64,000 nt of DNA from a phage. Made by a program: the position numbers and the translations under genes. Below the pieces are notes generated by a model. The model was not told the DNA's origin. It saw only the letters and a program-made list of their open reading frames with translations, and did no database searches. Of this stretch, positions 199 to 40,727 are shown piece after piece. Every line of letters starts with the position of its first letter. Positions within the stretch are counted from its first letter, which is position 1. The stretch lies in the sequence record PZ053912.1. The stretch is one strand, 5' to 3'.

Positions 199-540
199 TT
201 AAAAGAATTTAAATTTTTTCTTGGTCCGTTCATTAAAAGCTTGTTGTACTTGCATTGTAACACATTTTTCAACATGTGGTGCAAGTTCTGCTTTTCTATC
301 CTGGTCAAGAACTGCAAAGTCCATTACGATTTTACCATCAACCCAGTCTAGTTTTGTAATATAGACTATATGATGAGAACCGTCTTCAAGTGTAATCAGA
401 ATCTCTTGAATGACATTTTCCATTGCTGAACGGATAATTTTAAGAGATTCATTAAACACTCGTTCTTTGCGAATGTCTTCCCCTTCCGAAGAAGGGGATT
501 CATCAACGATTTCTAGATTTAAATCATCGAGATTATTCAT
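199..540 (-). CDS. 40: gp40-like head vertex assembly protein; start taken at internal ATG 538-540 overlapping the uvsX stop
   Basis: ORF 199..561; 114 aa from MNNLDDLNLEIVD; position between uvsX and 41 as in T4. Confidence 0.6.
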   Translation of the reverse strand: MNNLDDLNLEIVDESPSSEGEDIRKERVFNESLKIIRSAMENVIQEILITLEDGSHHIVYITKLDWVDGKIVMDFAVLDQDRKAELAPHVEKCVTMQVQQAFNERTKKKFKFF

Positions 541-1705
541 CGAAATCTTCCATTTCGTCAAGGTCGTTTTCTATATCTGCTGCAGACGGAGCATCAGAAG
601 TTTTAACCGGAACTTTAGTTGTTGCTTTGCAATTAATAAGGTCATTAACAGCGTCATCAACTTCTTTAATAGAAGAGATAGCACCTAGTTTATATTTAGT
701 TTCAATTGCATCTCGGAAAGGTTTGTGTTTAAACAACGGTCCCCAGAATTCTACACAATCAGTAGCTTTAGCACGCCATGATTTCTCTTCACGAATCATT
801 TCGCCTGTTTCTTCGTCAAGGAATTCTCGAGCATACCAACCAGCTTTAGGCTTAACCACAAAACCGATTTCAGTTGCCATTTCTAACAAGCCACTGAATG
901 GGTCGATACCACCATCGAAATTAACCGTGATTGGGAAAGTAGATTTCTCTTTAACTGTACGAGATTTTTCTGCTTTCAACGTGAAGTCATAACCGGTCAA
1001 TTCTGTACCTTCTTTAACCTGACGTTTAGAGATAAAGAATACGGTGTTAGCAGAGTAAAGAATACCTGTGCCACCGCCCATAATCTCTTTAGGATACAAT
1101 CCGCCAATTTCCATTGCTGTATGGTTGATTGCAACACATGGAATATCTTTAATAGTCAGATAAGGAGTCACAATGCGGAACAGAGATTTAAGTGCCTTAG
1201 CACGAGACATATCACCTACGACTTTCTCGTTCAATGCATCTTCGGTTTCTTTCTTAGATGCAGTATTACCGATTGAATCGATAAAGATAATAACTTTATC
1301 ACCGCGTTCAATCGCGTCAAGCTGATTAGTCATATCAACTTTAAGTTGTTCGACAGATTGAATCGGAGTATGAACTACACGGTCTAAATCAACACCCATT
1401 GAACGAAAATAAGATTCTGAAGCACCAAATTCTGAATCATAGAACAAACAAATTGCATCTTTATATTTCTTCATATATGCTGCAACCATGGTCAGTCCAA
1501 ACAACGTTTTAAAGTGTTTAGAAGGAGCAGCAAAAATAGTTAAGCCTGATTGCAACCCGGCATTCAGTGCACCACCTAATGCAATATTCAACATCGGAAT
1601 ACGAGTAGGGACTTCATCGCGATTATTAAACAGCTTAGACTTAGTCAAGTCTGCAGTCATTTTAGAAGTAGAAGCTTTAATCAGACGAGATTTTAAATCA
1701 GACAT
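533..1705 (-). CDS. uvsX: UvsX RecA-like recombinase
   Basis: 390 aa; MSDLKSRLIKASTSKMTADL... and RecA-fold core recalled from T4 UvsX. Confidence 0.95.
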   Translation of the reverse strand: MSDLKSRLIKASTSKMTADLTKSKLFNNRDEVPTRIPMLNIALGGALNAGLQSGLTIFAAPSKHFKTLFGLTMVAAYMKKYKDAICLFYDSEFGASESYFRSMGVDLDRVVHTPIQSVEQLKVDMTNQLDAIERGDKVIIFIDSIGNTASKKETEDALNEKVVGDMSRAKALKSLFRIVTPYLTIKDIPCVAINHTAMEIGGLYPKEIMGGGTGILYSANTVFFISKRQVKEGTELTGYDFTLKAEKSRTVKEKSTFPITVNFDGGIDPFSGLLEMATEIGFVVKPKAGWYAREFLDEETGEMIREEKSWRAKATDCVEFWGPLFKHKPFRDAIETKYKLGAISSIKEVDDAVNDLINCKATTKVPVKTSDAPSAADIENDLDEMEDFDE

Positions 1706-1804
1706 TGTATTTTTCCATAGGCATCATTATATTTTACTCATGTTTAAAAGATAAGATGATTATATACTAAGGGTTATACAGCATTTAAAACTTTAAACAG
1801 GCTC

Positions 1805-2353
1805 TTAACGAGCCCATTTGATAATTTCTGTAATCAAATAATTACGTTCGCTTGCATTAAATCCTATAACTTTGTTAGCACCGTCATGATTAAGTAATTG
1901 ATACGTTTGGATTTTGTTATGAATTGCAAACTCTTCAAAATATGAAATGACTGTATTAAAACCGAATGAAGACAAAGTAATAAGATCGTCTTCAAAACTT
2001 TCAGTCATTTCGTTACGTGTTAAAATAATTGTGAACACATCATGGTTTTGGCAAAGACGAACATAATCCTGTTCATAAACGTCAAGAACCGAGTCCGCAT
2101 CTTGTCGAATACGTCCATAAACCCAGTTACTAATATATCCACGGTCTAACAGATAAATCTTAGTAGGGTCTAAATAATTCAACATCGTTTCGAAACAGCC
2201 AACTTCATTTCGAGACTTAACATCGAAACGTCCATCAACTGTTCGTTTAGGGAAATCAATCTTTACATATCTTTCACTAATTTCCATTATGTCATTAATG
2301 AAAGTTGTTTTACCAGCATTATCCGGGCCATCTACTAAAATAATTTTAGCCAT
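1805..2353 (-). CDS. P-loop NTPase, small kinase-like protein, substrate unknown
   Basis: 182 aa; Walker A GPDNAGKTT at residues 9-17; sits in the block between uvsX and gene 42. Confidence 0.5.
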   Translation of the reverse strand: MAKIILVDGPDNAGKTTFINDIMEISERYVKIDFPKRTVDGRFDVKSRNEVGCFETMLNYLDPTKIYLLDRGYISNWVYGRIRQDADSVLDVYEQDYVRLCQNHDVFTIILTRNEMTESFEDDLITLSSFGFNTVISYFEEFAIHNKIQTYQLLNHDGANKVIGFNASERNYLITEIIKWAR

Positions 2354-5854: not shown

Positions 5855-7542
5855 TAGATTCGTTCCCATTGATGAGTGATATCGCCACCGATTGGACGAT
5901 AGGAAACACCAGTTTCTTTATCAGTTAGTACCCATTTACCAGGATTTTTTGTAATCAGAGTAGCCGTTACAGGTTCTGCTACGTCATAACTAATAGAGCC
6001 GTCTTGAAGTACACGGCCCATGTTACGTAATTGCTTAGTCAGAAGTTCCATACCTTTATAATATGCGGCTACCGCTTTAAGTGGATTATTCTTGAAATAA
6101 CCACCTAATGCAATCCAGATAATTGCCACTGCCAAATGATGATACTCGTTAAACGAACTCATCTTTCCATATTTGTAAACTAATGGATTGATGTTAATAG
6201 TCACATTACAAGTTGTTTCATCAATAGTAAACTGTCCCCAGGTCGGATTAGCATTGAATTCATCATAACCTGAAACAGCATAAAGCACTTTAGCTTCATC
6301 GTACAATTTTGGCCCGTAAATCTTGGTTTCGCCAAAATATCCACGAGGGTCGATAAACTTGACTTCACCATTATCAGTAATCATAGTATTACTGAAGTTC
6401 GGGTCACCATGAATAACAGAGTACTGTCCCTGAGAACGGTTATGATAACGAATAAGGTGTTCTAAAGCTTGTTTCAACATTGGCTTCAGACGTCCAATCT
6501 TAGTGTAGTTCACATGTGTGATTTTACCGAATGAATCAATCAATGGTTGAATACTTTCACAACGATCAATAACTTTCGTATAGAACTCTTTAGTGAAATC
6601 ACGGCGAACAGTTTCAGGACTTACAAAATAAGTGTCTGTGCTGAATTTCAGTGCATCTAAAATTGCATCAACAATTTGTGGACGAGCAAGACTCGATTTG
6701 GATTTAATATATTCAAATGCCGGCTTACCTTTAATGCGTTCCATAATAAAGTGGCCGCCAGGATGATAACTTACAATCCGTGGAACTGAATCTGATTTAA
6801 CTTTCTTATACCAATTGACTTCATCTTTTTGAAGTGCAACGCCCTGTTCTGTTAAAGCAATCTTTGTTACCGTTTCTTCGCCAATTTCAACTGCATTAAA
6901 ACTACGATTAAGTTCACGAACTTCATGAGCTTTTTCAAGTTTAGGCATATCACCAAGGTCGATGATATTCATAAGCTCTGATTTATTGAATGCGCTGCCG
7001 TAAAGGAATTCTACGAAATCACGTCCTTTGCAGTATTCATGAATTTCCTCATCAGTAGAACCCATATAGAATTCCCAGTCTTTGAACTGATAAATTCCTA
7101 CAACATTACCACCTGTTGAACCTACATTAGTGATATTTTCACCGTCGAAATTATATCGACATTCGTCACCCTTAACATAGATTGCGTTAACATTCCAAGA
7201 CCACGAACCAAAATCAGGAATAATATCACACCAGTTAACAATTACATTATGGCCGTCTAAATCTTTGTGCAATTTAGCAAGAGCATAAGCAGAACCATAC
7301 GCTTCATCAACTGTACGAATAGTCACATTGAACCCTTCTTGCTCACAATAAGCTCGAACAGTTTCAGCAAATTTTGAATGAACTACTACAATAATTTCAT
7401 CTGCGCCAAGGTCAGAATAAATTGTATACAAATTGCTCAGAATAGTGTCTTGTTTATAGTTAACAAGCACCTTAGGAATATGATGCGTTATTGGATACAA
7501 ACGAGTTGCCAGTCCAGCACCAAGAATAACAGCTTTTTTCAT
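5854..7542 (-). CDS. Bifunctional sugar-phosphate nucleotidyltransferase (N-terminal) / APH-choline-kinase-fold kinase (central-C-terminal)
   Basis: 562 aa; N-terminal AVILGAGLATRL glycine-rich nucleotidyltransferase signature; later VIHGDPNFSN ... KFIDPRG resembles the catalytic loop of APH/choline kinases. Confidence 0.7.
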   Translation of the reverse strand: MKKAVILGAGLATRLYPITHHIPKVLVNYKQDTILSNLYTIYSDLGADEIIVVVHSKFAETVRAYCEQEGFNVTIRTVDEAYGSAYALAKLHKDLDGHNVIVNWCDIIPDFGSWSWNVNAIYVKGDECRYNFDGENITNVGSTGGNVVGIYQFKDWEFYMGSTDEEIHEYCKGRDFVEFLYGSAFNKSELMNIIDLGDMPKLEKAHEVRELNRSFNAVEIGEETVTKIALTEQGVALQKDEVNWYKKVKSDSVPRIVSYHPGGHFIMERIKGKPAFEYIKSKSSLARPQIVDAILDALKFSTDTYFVSPETVRRDFTKEFYTKVIDRCESIQPLIDSFGKITHVNYTKIGRLKPMLKQALEHLIRYHNRSQGQYSVIHGDPNFSNTMITDNGEVKFIDPRGYFGETKIYGPKLYDEAKVLYAVSGYDEFNANPTWGQFTIDETTCNVTININPLVYKYGKMSSFNEYHHLAVAIIWIALGGYFKNNPLKAVAAYYKGMELLTKQLRNMGRVLQDGSISYDVAEPVTATLITKNPGKWVLTDKETGVSYRPIGGDITHQWERI

Positions 7543-22365: not shown

Positions 22366-22836
22366 TTAATCATGTTTCCACACCCCATCGGTATTTGACC
22401 AAAGTCGCTGATTATCTGATCCTCGCCACAGCTTTTTAGTCGGAAGATTTTTCTCATACTTCCCATCAATAATAACATCAACATATTTAAGCATTTCTAG
22501 TTGTTTAATATCTTCAAACTTATATCCTGTCCACAACCAAATGCTTTTATTAGGATAAAGATTTTTTACTGTTTGAACGATGCAATGAACAACATCTCGG
22601 TTGTCAGGATAGAGAGGGTCACCTCCGGTTATAGTCAATCCTTCTATATAATCATTATTCAAGCATTCAATTAATTGTTCTAGTGTCTCTCCAGTGAATG
22701 GAATGCCATTTCTAGCATTCCATGTTGATTTATTATAACACCCTTCGCATTTATGCAAACAACCTGTAACGAAAAGAACGACCCTGCATCCAGGGCCATT
22801 CACAAAATCGCAAGGATAAAATCTATCATAATTCAT
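22366..22836 (-). CDS. nrdG: Anaerobic ribonucleotide reductase activase NrdG (radical SAM)
   Basis: 156 aa; CLHKCEGCYN (CxxxCxxC); adjacent to nrdD. Confidence 0.9.
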   Translation of the reverse strand: MNYDRFYPCDFVNGPGCRVVLFVTGCLHKCEGCYNKSTWNARNGIPFTGETLEQLIECLNNDYIEGLTITGGDPLYPDNRDVVHCIVQTVKNLYPNKSIWLWTGYKFEDIKQLEMLKYVDVIIDGKYEKNLPTKKLWRGSDNQRLWSNTDGVWKHD

Positions 22837-24650
22837 TGGTGTTTAACCCTATGCATGATTTCTTTATTTTTACCGAGATTAAATCCGCGTTCGTTCGGAT
22901 TTCCCAAATAACCGCATGTTCTTCTTATGGTGTTCATCTTTTTAGGATCACTTTCTCCACAAATAGAACAAACAAATCCGTTTTCAGTAGGAGTCATTTC
23001 ATGGGTACTTCCACATGTAAAACATTTATCTACTGGCATATTAACACCAAAATAATCTAAATGCTGTGCAGCATAATCCCATACAGCCTCAAGACCTTTT
23101 AGGTTATTTTTCATATCAGGAAGTTCAACATAAGAAATGTGACCACCTGTTGCAATGAAATGATACGGGGCTTCGCGAGAAATCTTTTCAAACGGAGTAA
23201 TATTTTCTTCTACCGAAACGTGGAAACTATTAGTGTACCAGCCTTTATCAGTAACATCTTTTACACTTCCATATTTCTCAGTATCAAGTTTACAGAAGCG
23301 ATAGCACAGGTTTTCAGCAGGTGTAGAATACAAGCTAAAAGCAAAACCGGTTCTTTCAGTCCACTGCTTAAGACGAGCATTCATTTTAGTTAAAATTTCC
23401 TGTCCAATATCACGTCCGACAAGAATATTCAATTCGTGAATACCAATGTATCCTAGGGACACTGAACTTCTACCATTTTTAAATAACTCAATTATATCGT
23501 CATCAGGTTTAAGACGAACCCCGAATGCACCTTCTTGGTAAAGAATAGGAGCTACAGTTGCTTTAACACCCTTTAAAGAACTAATTCTACACATCAAAGC
23601 TTCAAAACACAGATCCATTCGTTCATTAAATAGCTCAACAAATTTCTGTTCATTGAATTGTGTTCCAATATAAGAATCTAATGCAATACGAGGAAGATTC
23701 AGTGTTACAACACCAAGATTATTACGTCCATCAAGAATTTCATTACCAGTCGAATCTTTCCATACGCTCAAGAAACTACGACAGCCCATCGGAGAAACAG
23801 GAACTGAAGAACCAGTAATAGCTTTATTATTCTTAACCGAAATAATGTCAGGATACATTCTTTTGCTTGCACATTCTAACGCAAGTTGTTTAATATCATA
23901 GTTCGGATCATCTTTATAAAGATTAACACCTTCTTCAACAAACATAACAAGTTTAGGAAAAATAGGAGTTATCCCATCACGACCAAGGCCTTTAATGCGG
24001 TTTTTAAGAATTGTCTTCTGAATAATTCGTTCAGTCCAGTCAGTTCCAGTACCAAATGTAATTGTCACAAAAGGCGTTTGTCCGTTTGAACTAAAGAGAG
24101 TATTTACTTCATATTCATAAGCTTGGAATGCATCGTATACGTCTTTTTCTGTTTTAGATTGGGCGTAATTCAACGCATCAGCGATTTGCCATTTTTCTGC
24201 ATCCTCAATATGTTTTGCATAGGTGCGTTTAACATAAGGAGAAAGTACTTTATCTACATTCGCAAATGTAGTTCCACCATACTGATGCGAAGCAACTTGT
24301 GCAGTAATTTGTGCCATAATTGCAGTAGCAACGCCAATAGATTTAGGCGTTTCAATTTGAGCATTGCCTAATTTAAATCCATTCTCAAGCATTCCTTTTA
24401 AATCTACTAAACAGCAATTAGTAAATGGAAGAGCAGGAGAATAATCAATATCATGGAAATGGATAATTCCGCTTTCATGTGCTTTCATAATAAAAGACGG
24501 GACCATATTTTTGGCAATGTGCTTAGACACAATACCAGCCATAAGGTCCCGTTGAGTTGGAAAAACACGAGAATCTTTATTAGCATTCTCGTTCAAAAGA
24601 TCTTTATTAGTTTTATGAATTAATCCTTCAATTTCTTTTTCAATTTTCAT
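22833..24650 (-). CDS. nrdD: Anaerobic ribonucleoside-triphosphate reductase NrdD (glycyl radical enzyme), uninterrupted
   Basis: 605 aa; C-terminal Cys cluster CFTCGSTHE...CSICGESD and glycyl-radical tail RTCGYLG. Confidence 0.95.
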   Translation of the reverse strand: MKIEKEIEGLIHKTNKDLLNENANKDSRVFPTQRDLMAGIVSKHIAKNMVPSFIMKAHESGIIHFHDIDYSPALPFTNCCLVDLKGMLENGFKLGNAQIETPKSIGVATAIMAQITAQVASHQYGGTTFANVDKVLSPYVKRTYAKHIEDAEKWQIADALNYAQSKTEKDVYDAFQAYEYEVNTLFSSNGQTPFVTITFGTGTDWTERIIQKTILKNRIKGLGRDGITPIFPKLVMFVEEGVNLYKDDPNYDIKQLALECASKRMYPDIISVKNNKAITGSSVPVSPMGCRSFLSVWKDSTGNEILDGRNNLGVVTLNLPRIALDSYIGTQFNEQKFVELFNERMDLCFEALMCRISSLKGVKATVAPILYQEGAFGVRLKPDDDIIELFKNGRSSVSLGYIGIHELNILVGRDIGQEILTKMNARLKQWTERTGFAFSLYSTPAENLCYRFCKLDTEKYGSVKDVTDKGWYTNSFHVSVEENITPFEKISREAPYHFIATGGHISYVELPDMKNNLKGLEAVWDYAAQHLDYFGVNMPVDKCFTCGSTHEMTPTENGFVCSICGESDPKKMNTIRRTCGYLGNPNERGFNLGKNKEIMHRVKHQ

Positions 24651-25120
24651 TTTAAACTCTTTCTAAGCTGCTTTTTGAATGAAGCTATTAATTGTGTTTT
24701 GGTATCAGATTCATTATATTCAAATCCTCTTTGAAGCATCTCGGACATCATTTCCTCTTTACCTAGTCTTGAGAACTCTTTAGTTTTGTCTGGAACAAAA
24801 TTAGGATGGATATTATTATCAGAATAATCTTGTTTCAAATAAGCAAGAAGAGCTTCAAGCCATTCGAGGTAGTCGACATCACGTCCTTTAAGACCGGAAC
24901 GGTTGAACTTATGCTTCATTTGACCTTCTGCTGCATTGCACAGATTACAGAGTAACCCACGAACTCTACCTGCTTTTGGCCCGTTTAATTCATGGTCGTG
25001 GTCAAGATGGTTACCTTGAACATCAGGGTCTAATTCACGGTGGCAAATAGGACACTTACCATTCTGTGCATCGTAAAATTTTTGTTTTTCTTCTTTATAT
25101 TTTGCGCCTGATAATAACAT
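24647..25120 (-). CDS. 49: Endonuclease VII (Holliday junction resolvase) gp49
   Basis: 157 aa; CPICHRELDPDVQGNHLDHDHELNGPKAGRVRGLLCNLCNAAEG matches recalled T4 endo VII. Confidence 0.9.
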   Translation of the reverse strand: MLLSGAKYKEEKQKFYDAQNGKCPICHRELDPDVQGNHLDHDHELNGPKAGRVRGLLCNLCNAAEGQMKHKFNRSGLKGRDVDYLEWLEALLAYLKQDYSDNNIHPNFVPDKTKEFSRLGKEEMMSEMLQRGFEYNESDTKTQLIASFKKQLRKSLK

Positions 25121-39354: not shown

Positions 39355-39570
39355 TTATTGATAAAATGGAGTTAAAGCCCAAGATTCTTTAGATACCATA
39401 TCGGCGAAATGCCTCATCTCTTCGATTTGGCGACGACGTTGGTCAGCATAGTCTTCTTCGCCTTCTTCCTTACAATCATCAAGGTCTTCTTCAAGATACT
39501 TTAAGTATTCACTACAAATTTTGTTGACCTTTTCTTGAAAGTCCAATAACCCAGTAATAGTAGAAGCCAT
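39355..39570 (-). CDS. Hypothetical acidic protein
   Basis: 71 aa ORF. Confidence 0.45.
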   Translation of the reverse strand: MASTITGLLDFQEKVNKICSEYLKYLEEDLDDCKEEGEEDYADQRRRQIEEMRHFADMVSKESWALTPFYQ

Positions 39571-39836
39571 TAGTATTTTTCCTCAGGTCGAAATACTGCA
39601 CGGCATGCCCACATGCTGGCTTCTTTTAGATGTTGCTTAGCATACTTAAGAGCCTGCACTGCATCCATATCTTCTTTGGTTTGTTGCTCTGATTCATTTT
39701 CTTTCAAGATATATGCTTCTTCAATCAGAGCATCAAACATCAATCCAAGACGGACTTCTGCATCTTTAATAGCGTTCACTTTACTGATTTTATCATCGGT
39801 ATGCGGCTTGTAGCCTTTGATGTCTTCAATCGACAT
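39570..39836 (-). CDS. Hypothetical protein; start trimmed to MSIEDIKG
   Basis: ORF 39570..40004 overlaps the upstream ORF by 180 nt in another frame. Confidence 0.4.
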   Translation of the reverse strand: MSIEDIKGYKPHTDDKISKVNAIKDAEVRLGLMFDALIEEAYILKENESEQQTKEDMDAVQALKYAKQHLKEASMWACRAVFRPEEKY

Positions 39837-40050
39837 AAGGAATTTCCTCATCGGTGGCAAGGTCATATTCGACCAATTGGATAGGCTCATTAATACCATA
39901 TCCACGTACAGTGATATCGGTTGTCGGATATTTTCCAGTAATATCACCCATTCTAAATGCTTCAATGAATGATTGCTCGCCTGAGCAACTAAACCAGGCG
40001 GCAAAACATTTTAAAACATCTTCAGACCCTTCTATAATCAATTTAGCCAT
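39826..40050 (-). CDS. Hypothetical protein
   Basis: 74 aa ORF. Confidence 0.45.
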   Translation of the reverse strand: MAKLIIEGSEDVLKCFAAWFSCSGEQSFIEAFRMGDITGKYPTTDITVRGYGINEPIQLVEYDLATDEEIPYVD

Positions 40051-40412
40051 TATAGACTCTCAGTAAAGGTACGAGCGATAACATCGCGCTGCTGTTCCGG
40101 AGTCAGAGAGTTAAAGCGAACTGCATAACCGGATACACGGATGGTCAGCTGCGGATATTTTTCCGGATGCTTAACTGCATCTTCCAGAGTTTCACGACGC
40201 AGAACGTTAACGTTCAGGTGTTGACCACCTTCAATTTTAACTTTAGGTTGATGTTCAATTTCAATTTCACGGGCATTCAAACCGTAGAAAATTTCCGGGT
40301 CTACAATAGCGTCTTCTTTAAAAGTCTTAGAGACAATAATCCGGGCTTGAGTACCGTCTTCAAAATAAATAGTGCCTTTATGTGCACCTTCAAGAATTTG
40401 ATATGCTTTCAT
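40050..40412 (-). CDS. Autonomous glycyl-radical cofactor (GrcA/YfiD-like; T4 Y06I-type)
   Basis: 120 aa; C-terminal [43 protein letters not shown] with the RVSGY glycyl-radical motif. Confidence 0.8.
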
Positions 40413-40418
40413 ATAACC

Positions 40419-40727
40419 TCAATTAGAAAATAAATTTATCCAAGATTTTTCTTTAATCAAAAATGGGTCGGAATTAAACGCCATTAAACTTTGAGTGATT
40501 AATCCCTTAAATGGCCCATCAATAAATTCCATTTTGAAATGCGGAATACTAGTCATCAACCGTGCATTAGGAGCAGTACAAAGAACATGCTGCCCTGCGA
40601 ACGGACCTTTAGTCAAACGATATCGTTTAGGTTTAAAATGGTAAATCTCGTAATTTTCTACAAGAGCCCTTTTATTGCATGCTGGGCTGTTATAACAATA
40701 CTCAAAAACTTCAATAGTGGTCATCAT
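40419..40727 (-). CDS. Hypothetical protein
   Basis: ORF 40419..40775; start uncertain. Confidence 0.4.
   Translation of the reverse strand: MMTTIEVFEYCYNSPACNKRALVENYEIYHFKPKRYRLTKGPFAGQHVLCTAPNARLMTSIPHFKMEFIDGPFKGLITQSLMAFNSDPFLIKEKSWINLFSN

Follow-up and report, generated by a model that had tools for sequence, protein, structure and literature searches.

The vs.6 gene of an RB69-like lytic phage, an autonomous glycyl-radical cofactor gene with a host-derived radical domain

The stretch described here, called the window, comprises 64,000 nt of phage sequence record PZ053912.1. On its minus strand it carries the ortholog of T4 vs.6 (Y06I), a gene for an autonomous glycyl-radical cofactor of the GrcA (YfiD) type. 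The 3' half of this gene matches the chromosomal grcA of Escherichia coli almost perfectly at the DNA level, whereas the 5' half is of phage type. The features of the gene are the following.

40050..40412, minus strand: vs.6 / Y06I ortholog, GrcA-like coding sequence, 120 aa (open reading frame (ORF) list, Pfam, PHROG, identity to T4, PDB 6OWR)
40417..40420, minus strand: Shine-Dalgarno sequence GAGG, 6 nt 5' of the vs.6 ATG (direct sequence reading)
40235..40412, minus strand: 5' phage-type half (the head), codons 1-60, GrcA N-terminal region (codon alignment, codon usage)
40060..40234, minus strand: host-identical tract, gene nt 179-353, from position 2 of codon 60 to position 2 of codon 118, glycyl-radical domain (codon alignment)
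40125..40139, minus strand: RVSGY glycyl-radical motif, codons 92-96 (codon alignment; alignment to PflB 696-759)
40050..40059, minus strand: phage-type 3' end, from position 3 of codon 118 through the stop, with 3 synonymous differences from the host

The vs.6 gene and its host-identical tract

By codon alignment, 174 of the 175 nt of the tract are identical to E. coli grcA. The C-terminal 60 residues of the protein equal residues 68-127 of E. coli GrcA at all 60 positions, and 176 of the 180 nt that encode them are identical. A sequence-only reading of the window, made without database searches, had taken these residues to look almost identical to the host protein. This is borne out, and the pairwise alignment that it proposed gave near-identity to the host tail, not ordinary divergent homology. 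Codons 1-60 differ from E. coli grcA at 107 of 180 nt and share about 25% of the residues, and the switch from head to tract at codon 60|61 is sharp within 2 nt. The recent acquisition from the host that was also proposed there holds for the 3' half, where the DNA matches, but not for the whole gene, the 5' half being different and written in phage codons. The phage-type 3' end overlaps the start of vs.5 (TAATG) and a likely ribosome binding site (GAGAG). A match to the tract at an identity of at least 95% is present in every one of 5,426 complete E. coli genomes. The remaining 63.6 kb of the window gave no megablast match in the same 5,426 genomes, so that the tract is the only host-like DNA in the region.

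The composition of the two halves differs accordingly, with a G+C content of 0.49 in the tract; that of the head is 0.35, and the mean of the window is 0.37. Leucine is encoded by CTG in five of six codons of the tract, versus 10% in phage usage. The codon usage of the head is phage-like (94th percentile of the codon adaptation index (CAI) calculated for phage usage; G+C content at third codon positions (GC3) 0.23). Among 1,276 windows of sixty codons, the tail ranks at the 9.5th percentile for phage-CAI and at the 91st for GC3. Codon usage, the second check proposed in the sequence-only reading, is thus no more than suggestive; it is the nucleotide alignment that is decisive. The DNA of the tail matches grcA at 176/180 positions and pflB at about 144/180, and is clearly nearer to the former.

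Translation starts at ATG. The radical glycine is Gly95 (40128..40130), the counterpart of Gly102 in E. coli GrcA and of Gly734 in PflB, the host pyruvate formate-lyase (PFL). Pfam PF01228 (Gly_radical) matches residues 60-101 (E=2e-18; 67.3 bits against a cutoff of 22.2), and PHROG 1209 matches the full length, residues 1-120 (E=9e-63). Among solved structures, E. coli YfiD/GrcA (PDB 6OWR) was the top match in phmmer (E=2e-42), followed by PflB 696-759 (E=3e-26). The protein was tested against the GrcA/YfiD class (TIGR04365, spare_glycyl; IPR011140). It has the stand-alone size of about 120-130 aa, the C-terminal radical domain, the RVSGY motif and the duplicate of PflB 696-759. The earlier assignment to this class, the RVSGY motif in a 120-aa protein and the kinship with T4 Y06I were all confirmed, the first by the Pfam Gly_radical and 6OWR matches, the second at codons 92-96. 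The kinship is that of an ortholog, with 113 of 120 residues (94%) and 94% of the nucleotides identical to T4 vs.6 and with matching synteny. In RefSeq T4 vs.6 is labelled "autonomous glycyl radical cofactor GrcA", and vs.6 is among the conserved T4-like ORFs with a Gly_radical domain listed by Nolan et al. 2006. The gene and its function are therefore already known as T4 Y06I/vs.6.

For structure prediction with AlphaFold2 (AF2), 58 homologs from phages and bacteria were aligned. In this alignment R24 is invariant and Q5, K29 and D34 are nearly so; judged by the alignment, the N-terminal half is still homologous to GrcA. Residues 1-50 are predicted by AF2 to form a five-stranded beta domain (predicted local distance difference test, pLDDT, about 90), whereas residues 1-60 of E. 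coli YfiD are disordered by nuclear magnetic resonance. The radical domain was predicted with a lower pLDDT (62-80) than the N-terminal domain, as is expected of a module that needs PFL. Foldseek searches with the AF2 model gave 6OWR and PFL for the C-terminal half and, for the N-terminal domain, weak KOW/SH3-like similarity alone (E>=0.06).

The gene sits in a compact minus-strand block with the order tk ... vs, vs.1, regB, vs.3-like, vs.4, vs.5, vs.6, vs.7, vs.8, denV, e, nudE. T4 has its genes in this order too, and the part regB - vs.3/vs.4/vs.5 - vs.6 - vs.7 - vs.8 - denV, as in the T4 annotation, is also found in RB69 and G53. The phage is of the RB69 type, its nearest records being Mosigviruses (vB_EcoM_G53, 99.2% nt identity). 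The immediate downstream neighbor is the following.

39826..40050, minus strand: vs.5 homolog, translationally coupled to vs.6 (ORF; PHROG 1986, E=2e-39; 99% nt identity to RB69 vs.5)

The stop codon of vs.6 overlaps the start codon of vs.5 as TAATG. A scan for promoters and terminators around vs.6 gave nothing over the shuffled expectation (8 promoter-like sites versus 8.8 expected). Two genes 3' of vs.6 lies a vs.4 homolog (39570..39836, minus strand) with an Acb2/Tad1 hairpin domain (PF24729, E=8e-18). Acb2/Tad1 is an anti-CBASS/anti-Thoeris nucleotide sponge, and a vs.4 homolog also follows vs.6 in Kc304-like and Jiaodavirus-like contigs.

Evidence for transfer, donors and distribution

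Ordinary old homology would require no transfer at all, the tail being held identical by purifying selection and/or by convergent codon optimisation for host tRNAs. Such an account agrees with the strong constraint on the radical domain, which has 39 invariant positions in the 58 phage and bacterial sequences and a dN of about 0 between phage RB16 and E. coli. It fails at the level of codons. For the same protein under phage codon usage, 22.9 of 55 codons are expected to be identical; 54 of 55 were observed (Poisson-binomial P~5e-24). Over the same codons 61-115, T4 likewise shares 54 of 55 codons with E. coli, and T2 and FL34 share all 55. The Pseudotevenviruses RB16 and EC-F2 encode a tail protein 100% identical to that of E. 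coli GrcA, yet they share only 30-31 of 55 codons and about 83% of the nucleotides; the identity of the tract is therefore not explained by protein constraint. As RB16 demonstrates (100% aa, 83% nt), an identical protein alone is not proof of recent transfer, and a DNA comparison is needed. Among the codons shared in the tract are CAA, AAG, CAT and GTA, which are non-preferred in E. coli, and their sharing argues against convergent codon optimisation. Klebsiella phages, in addition, match the synonymous sites of Klebsiella pneumoniae instead (see below). Descent without transfer is accordingly regarded as extremely improbable.

For identification of the donor, the 165-nt core of the tail (codons 61-115) was compared with grcA from 82 bacterial sources, plus K. 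pneumoniae. The core differs from that of E. coli at one position in the window and in T4, at none in T2 and FL34, and at two in RB69. For the window, T4, T2 and RB69, the differences amount to 13-14 from Citrobacter, 20-21 from K. pneumoniae and 29-30 from Salmonella, and the nearest host was the E. coli clade in 1000 of 1000 bootstraps. By these distances, the donor of the tract is SPECIFICALLY Escherichia. The grcA genes of E. coli and Salmonella differ from each other at 29 of 165 core positions, so the tract is much younger than the split between these hosts. The grcA tail of Salmonella found no phage above 90% identity, and no Salmonella-specific conversion is visible among the phages. 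The private variant of the window (codon 110, GAT) was not found in E. coli alleles among the matches listed. Classes of E. coli matches at 99.4% and 98.3% were considered as polymorphism and rejected, as they reflect a strand-dependent effect of alignment trimming.

The K. pneumoniae grcA was taken from mislabelled chromosome records in PLSDB. Several "plasmid" records of this database, CP125156.1 among them, are whole chromosomes or fragments of chromosomes; one example is a 5.37-Mb K. pneumoniae 'plasmid unnamed2'. A further record, NZ_JBQPOM010000029.1 of 'Vagococcus sp. WN89Y' (Firmicutes), contains a typical enterobacterial grcA, 91% identical to E. coli GrcA, which is likely a case of mislabelling or contamination.

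In 643 phage records the tail has an identity of 95% or more to E. coli grcA. These records bear on a possible artefact, in which E. coli DNA would have reached the phage contig through host contamination or chimeric assembly. A 175-nt match to the propagation host is indeed the appearance expected of a chimeric read. However, the same in-frame junction occurs in the 643 independent records, among them the references T4, T2 and RB69, and also in IMG/VR contigs, and phage sequence stands on both sides of the tract within one ORF. Because so many records, including T4, T2 and RB69, carry the tail, an assembly artefact was dismissed, with next to no probability left to it.

The E. coli type of tail is found in Tequatrovirus and Mosigvirus, and a K. 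pneumoniae type in Jiaodavirus. In 106 phage records the tail is 95-99% identical to that of K. pneumoniae. The core of the Jiaodavirus KP17 differs from K. pneumoniae grcA at 4 of 165 positions, versus 19 from E. coli. KP17 stood in for KPV15, the closest phage of the Klebsiella type, because a frameshift in the KPV15 record splits the gene. The Klebsiella Jiaodaviruses have a head of the type common to T4 and RB69 (48-51 of 180 nt apart) and the same boundary at codon 60|61, with a GC3 of 0.58-0.60 in the tail versus 0.22 in the head. Between E. coli-type and Klebsiella-type sequences, the distance from phage to phage (19-20 of 165 core positions) equals the distance from host to host (20 of 165). 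Both converted lineages keep the last three to five codons in phage type, where they overlap the vs.5 start and likely ribosome binding site. In related Tevenvirinae such as Karamvirus and Kosakonia phage Kc304 the tails have a GC3 of 0.25-0.32 and at least 33 of 165 differences from every host sampled; on this pattern they represent the unconverted state.

Several further alleles were seen. The KPV15 vs.6 (322..683) is annotated as two coding sequences via the frameshift, and grcA of K. aerogenes NCTC10006 is likewise frameshifted; both are probably sequencing errors. A Jiaodavirus-like allele in a Logan contig of SRR33405499 (301..663) has a hybrid tail with the motif LLDAVKH and a GC3 of 0.56 in the tail and 0.13 in the head. 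It shows 15 of 165 differences from both K. pneumoniae and Pseudocitrobacter, and may derive from a third, unsampled enterobacterial donor. GrcA-like genes also occur in unrelated virulent phages, namely T5-like phages (Demerecviridae), jumbo Klebsiella phages of the K64-1-like type (contigs of about 350 kb) and Schizotequatrovirus (Vibrio phage PVA23). Their tails have phage codon usage, and those of the T5-like phages look more PflB-like (LLDAQKH...TREQQND...TQAM).

The model implied by the sequence-only reading was that a whole host grcA had been captured recently and that its N-terminal half then diverged fast. The alignment to full-length GrcA is gapless with an offset of 7, the residues R24, K29 and D34 are kept in all GrcAs, and the tail is near-identical to the host, as this model would have it. 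Fast divergence does not account, however, for a head with 107 of 180 nt different that adjoins a tract with 1 of 175, the boundary lying within 2 nt. The same type of head is joined to tails in phage codons in Karamvirus and Kc304 and to a Klebsiella-type tail in Jiaodavirus, and the codon usage of the head is fully phage-like. Whole-gene capture is thus considered very improbable, if slightly less so than descent without transfer.

Function and relation to NrdD

Only two spare parts of PFL, YfiD of E. coli and Y06I of T4, have been validated biochemically (Andorfer et al. 2021, PMC8683613). The glycyl radical is introduced by the PFL-activating enzyme (PFL-AE); the spare part, once activated, forms a complex with O2-cleaved PFL, by which activity is restored (PMC8683613). 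Residues 61-127 of YfiD share the fold of PFL 693-759 (PMC8683613). According to the account of Wagner et al. 2001 given in PMC8683613, T4 Y06I is activated by PFL-AE and rescues O2-cleaved PFL; for Y06I, docking and activation have been demonstrated in vitro.

Because the radical domain of the window protein is identical to that of GrcA, the same mechanism is proposed for it. After infection the phage would make a 120-aa protein of which the C-terminal 60 residues are the GrcA radical domain, itself a copy of PflB 696-759. When O2 cleaves the host PFL at Gly734, the phage protein would dock on the cleaved enzyme and replace the lost C-terminus. The host activase PflA would then put the radical on Gly95, and PFL activity would return, with production of acetyl-CoA and formate that feeds ATP production. 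Fermentative metabolism could in this way be sustained in a gut host that is unable to induce its own grcA after shut-off by the phage, which is the presumed benefit to the phage.

The gene had been described earlier as encoded alongside the anaerobic ribonucleotide reductase NrdD. This enzyme is present in the window, together with its activase, in the following arrangement.

22366..22836, minus strand: NrdG, activase of NrdD (NCBIfam TIGR02491, 198 bits against a cutoff of 126)
22833..24650, minus strand: NrdD, anaerobic ribonucleotide reductase (Pfam NRDD, 2e-170; Gly_radical, 1e-25)
24647..25120, minus strand: endonuclease VII (gp49), directly 5' of nrdD (PF02945, 5e-20; PF09124, 1e-31)

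The order 49-nrdD-nrdG is that of T4. The distance from vs.6 to nrdD is 15.4 kb, so the proposed link stands as to the presence of NrdD but not as to its proximity. The comparison of the two window proteins by BLASTP (E=2.6, with the radical loops not aligned) and the PflB-type tail of vs.6 also speak against it.

As an alternative function, the protein was considered to serve the phage's own NrdD and not host PFL, acting as a spare part or as a radical reservoir that is activated by the phage NrdG. NrdD is likewise a glycyl-radical enzyme, is cleaved by O2 at its radical glycine, and is encoded with NrdG in the same window. A distant homolog of the cofactor gene in Aeromonas phage phiAS5 lies directly 3' of nrdD-nrdG and 5' of nrdC-nrdH, and a role in nucleotide metabolism was speculated on by Nolan et al. 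2006. The window protein, in contrast, lacks the features of an NrdD-specific spare part: its motif is RVSGY versus RTCGY in NrdD, and its gene is not adjacent to nrdD-nrdG but stands in the regB-denV cluster, here as in T4. In sequence the tail agrees with PflB 696-759 at 76% and with GrcA at 100%, and T4 Y06I is described in PMC8683613, which cites the original work, as having rescued PFL with PFL-AE. A function for NrdD is hence judged unlikely, and the reading as a PFL spare part is retained. The GrcA-like gene of phiAS5 (1501..1878 of the compared stretch; 43% aa identity, motif RISGY) overlaps the nrdG stop and is the only case seen of a spare-part gene truly beside NrdD. For that lineage, the arrangement may point to a role connected with NrdD.

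Probable origin by patch conversion and its meaning

Taken together, vs.6 is very probably both a PFL spare part of the Y06I type and an old phage gene in which a tract was overwritten by host grcA, at least twice independently. The gene would be a mosaic, its 5' half being an old, phage-evolved GrcA N-terminal region. During lytic infection, E. coli grcA DNA would have been pasted into 40060..40234 by homologous recombination, that is, by patch gene conversion. The tract starts exactly at the onset of nucleotide homology between phage and host (EGGQHLNV...) and ends a few codons 5' of the stop, where the overlapping downstream gene requires the phage's own sequence. Host DNA internal to an ORF with phage DNA on both sides points to homologous patch conversion rather than to illegitimate capture. 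The same event would have taken place independently in the Klebsiella Jiaodaviruses with grcA of the K. pneumoniae type.

The head follows the phage lineages, with 1 nt difference from RB69 and 19 from T4. Between the window and T4, the neighboring genes (tk, vs, vs.1, regB, denV, e, nudE) are 63-80% identical in nucleotides, with about 0.3 synonymous-difference codons per codon, versus 0.18 in the vs.6 head and 0.02 (1/55) in the core. The rate of the neighbors would predict about 18 synonymous differences in the core, and that of the head about 10. The core is far below both, which indicates that the E. coli-type tract entered, was re-copied or spread after the genera had diverged. In the E. 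coli T-even phages the tract has thus been homogenised after the split of T4 and RB69, whether through repeated conversion or because one converted allele spread from phage to phage. The variants in ten T4/RB69-type alleles are private singletons, except for mixed patterns in codons 116-120. Between the Mosigvirus window and T4 (6741..6920 of the T4 stretch), the vs.6 head (40233..40412) has 89% identity, compared with the 63-80% of the neighbors. The whole of vs.6 may have moved between phage genera later than its neighbors, perhaps seeded by the shared identical tract.

A number of points weigh against this reading of function and origin. The window protein scores 159.1 bits with the NCBIfam GrcA equivalog model, below the cutoff of 170; it covers positions 23-126 of the 126 in the profile, and the low score is due to the diverged N-terminal half. 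That half matters to the function as well, since residues 1-60 of YfiD, although disordered, aid binding to cleaved PFL and activation (PMC8683613), and it is this part that has diverged in the phage. Activation of the window protein by PflA and rescue of PFL are extrapolated from T4 Y06I. As to origin, the recombination mechanism is deduced from the sequence pattern alone. T-even phages break down the DNA of their host, so that recombination has only a limited time. The phage-private variants are all singletons and are absent from E. coli alleles among the matches listed. Among E. coli phages, one conversion followed by phage-to-phage spread and recurrent conversion are not separable. The Jiaodavirus tract, finally, is 96-98% and not about 100% identical to the single K. 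pneumoniae allele tested, and may therefore have come from a different lineage of Klebsiella.

A more far-reaching proposal, given even chances, is that the radical-domain half of the gene in virulent T-even phages is in concerted evolution with the chromosome of the host species that each phage infects. Through homologous recombination during lytic infection, codons ~61-117 would be overwritten repeatedly by the resident grcA, and strong constraint on the protein would retain homology sufficient for the process to reinforce itself.

The gene resembles several known systems and differs from each. T4 Y06I (vs.6) also has 120 aa, is likewise placed between vs.7 and vs.5 and carries the 3' tract identical to E. 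coli, but the window allele is of the RB69/Mosigvirus type and shares Arg73 with E. coli (His73 in T4). E. coli GrcA (YfiD, 6OWR) is a stand-alone cofactor too. Its residues 68-127 are 100% identical in aa and about 99% in DNA, and equivalents of R30, K35 and D41 are present; the N-terminal half of the window protein, however, is only ~25% identical, and the protein is 7 residues shorter, has phage codon usage there and belongs to a virulent phage. The C-terminal domain of PflB (696-759) has the same fold and motif with 76% identity over 64 residues, but in the window the module is detached and comprises 60 residues, not part of a 760-aa enzyme. The psbA and psbD genes of cyanophages are reportedly auxiliary metabolic genes of virulent T4-like phages with patches exchanged with the host. 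Here, in contrast, the host is enteric, the phage DNA contains hydroxymethyl-C and the phages degrade host DNA. Half of a tiny gene is replaced, moreover, with a fixed 5' boundary and nearly 100% identity to the host in hundreds of isolates. Since patch exchange in cyanophage psbA is known, the phenomenon is not categorically new. No description of the nucleotide-level mosaic or of host-specific tracts was found in the searchable literature; the 2001 paper on Y06I and the T4 genome review lay outside that search, and an earlier notice is possible.

It is well supported that in lytic T-even phages the radical domain underwent host-derived gene conversion on at least two occasions. The gene offers a clean and quantified case of host-to-phage gene conversion within one small gene of obligately lytic phages, involving at least two host species. 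If the proposed concerted evolution is true, phages that are thought to destroy host DNA would track their hosts by gene conversion, and a stretch of 175 bp of perfect homology between phage and host, and between phage and phage, would have been created. GrcA-like genes are common to unrelated virulent phages (T4-like, T5-like and jumbo Klebsiella phages), which supports the view that upkeep of host PFL under fluctuating oxygen matters to gut phages.

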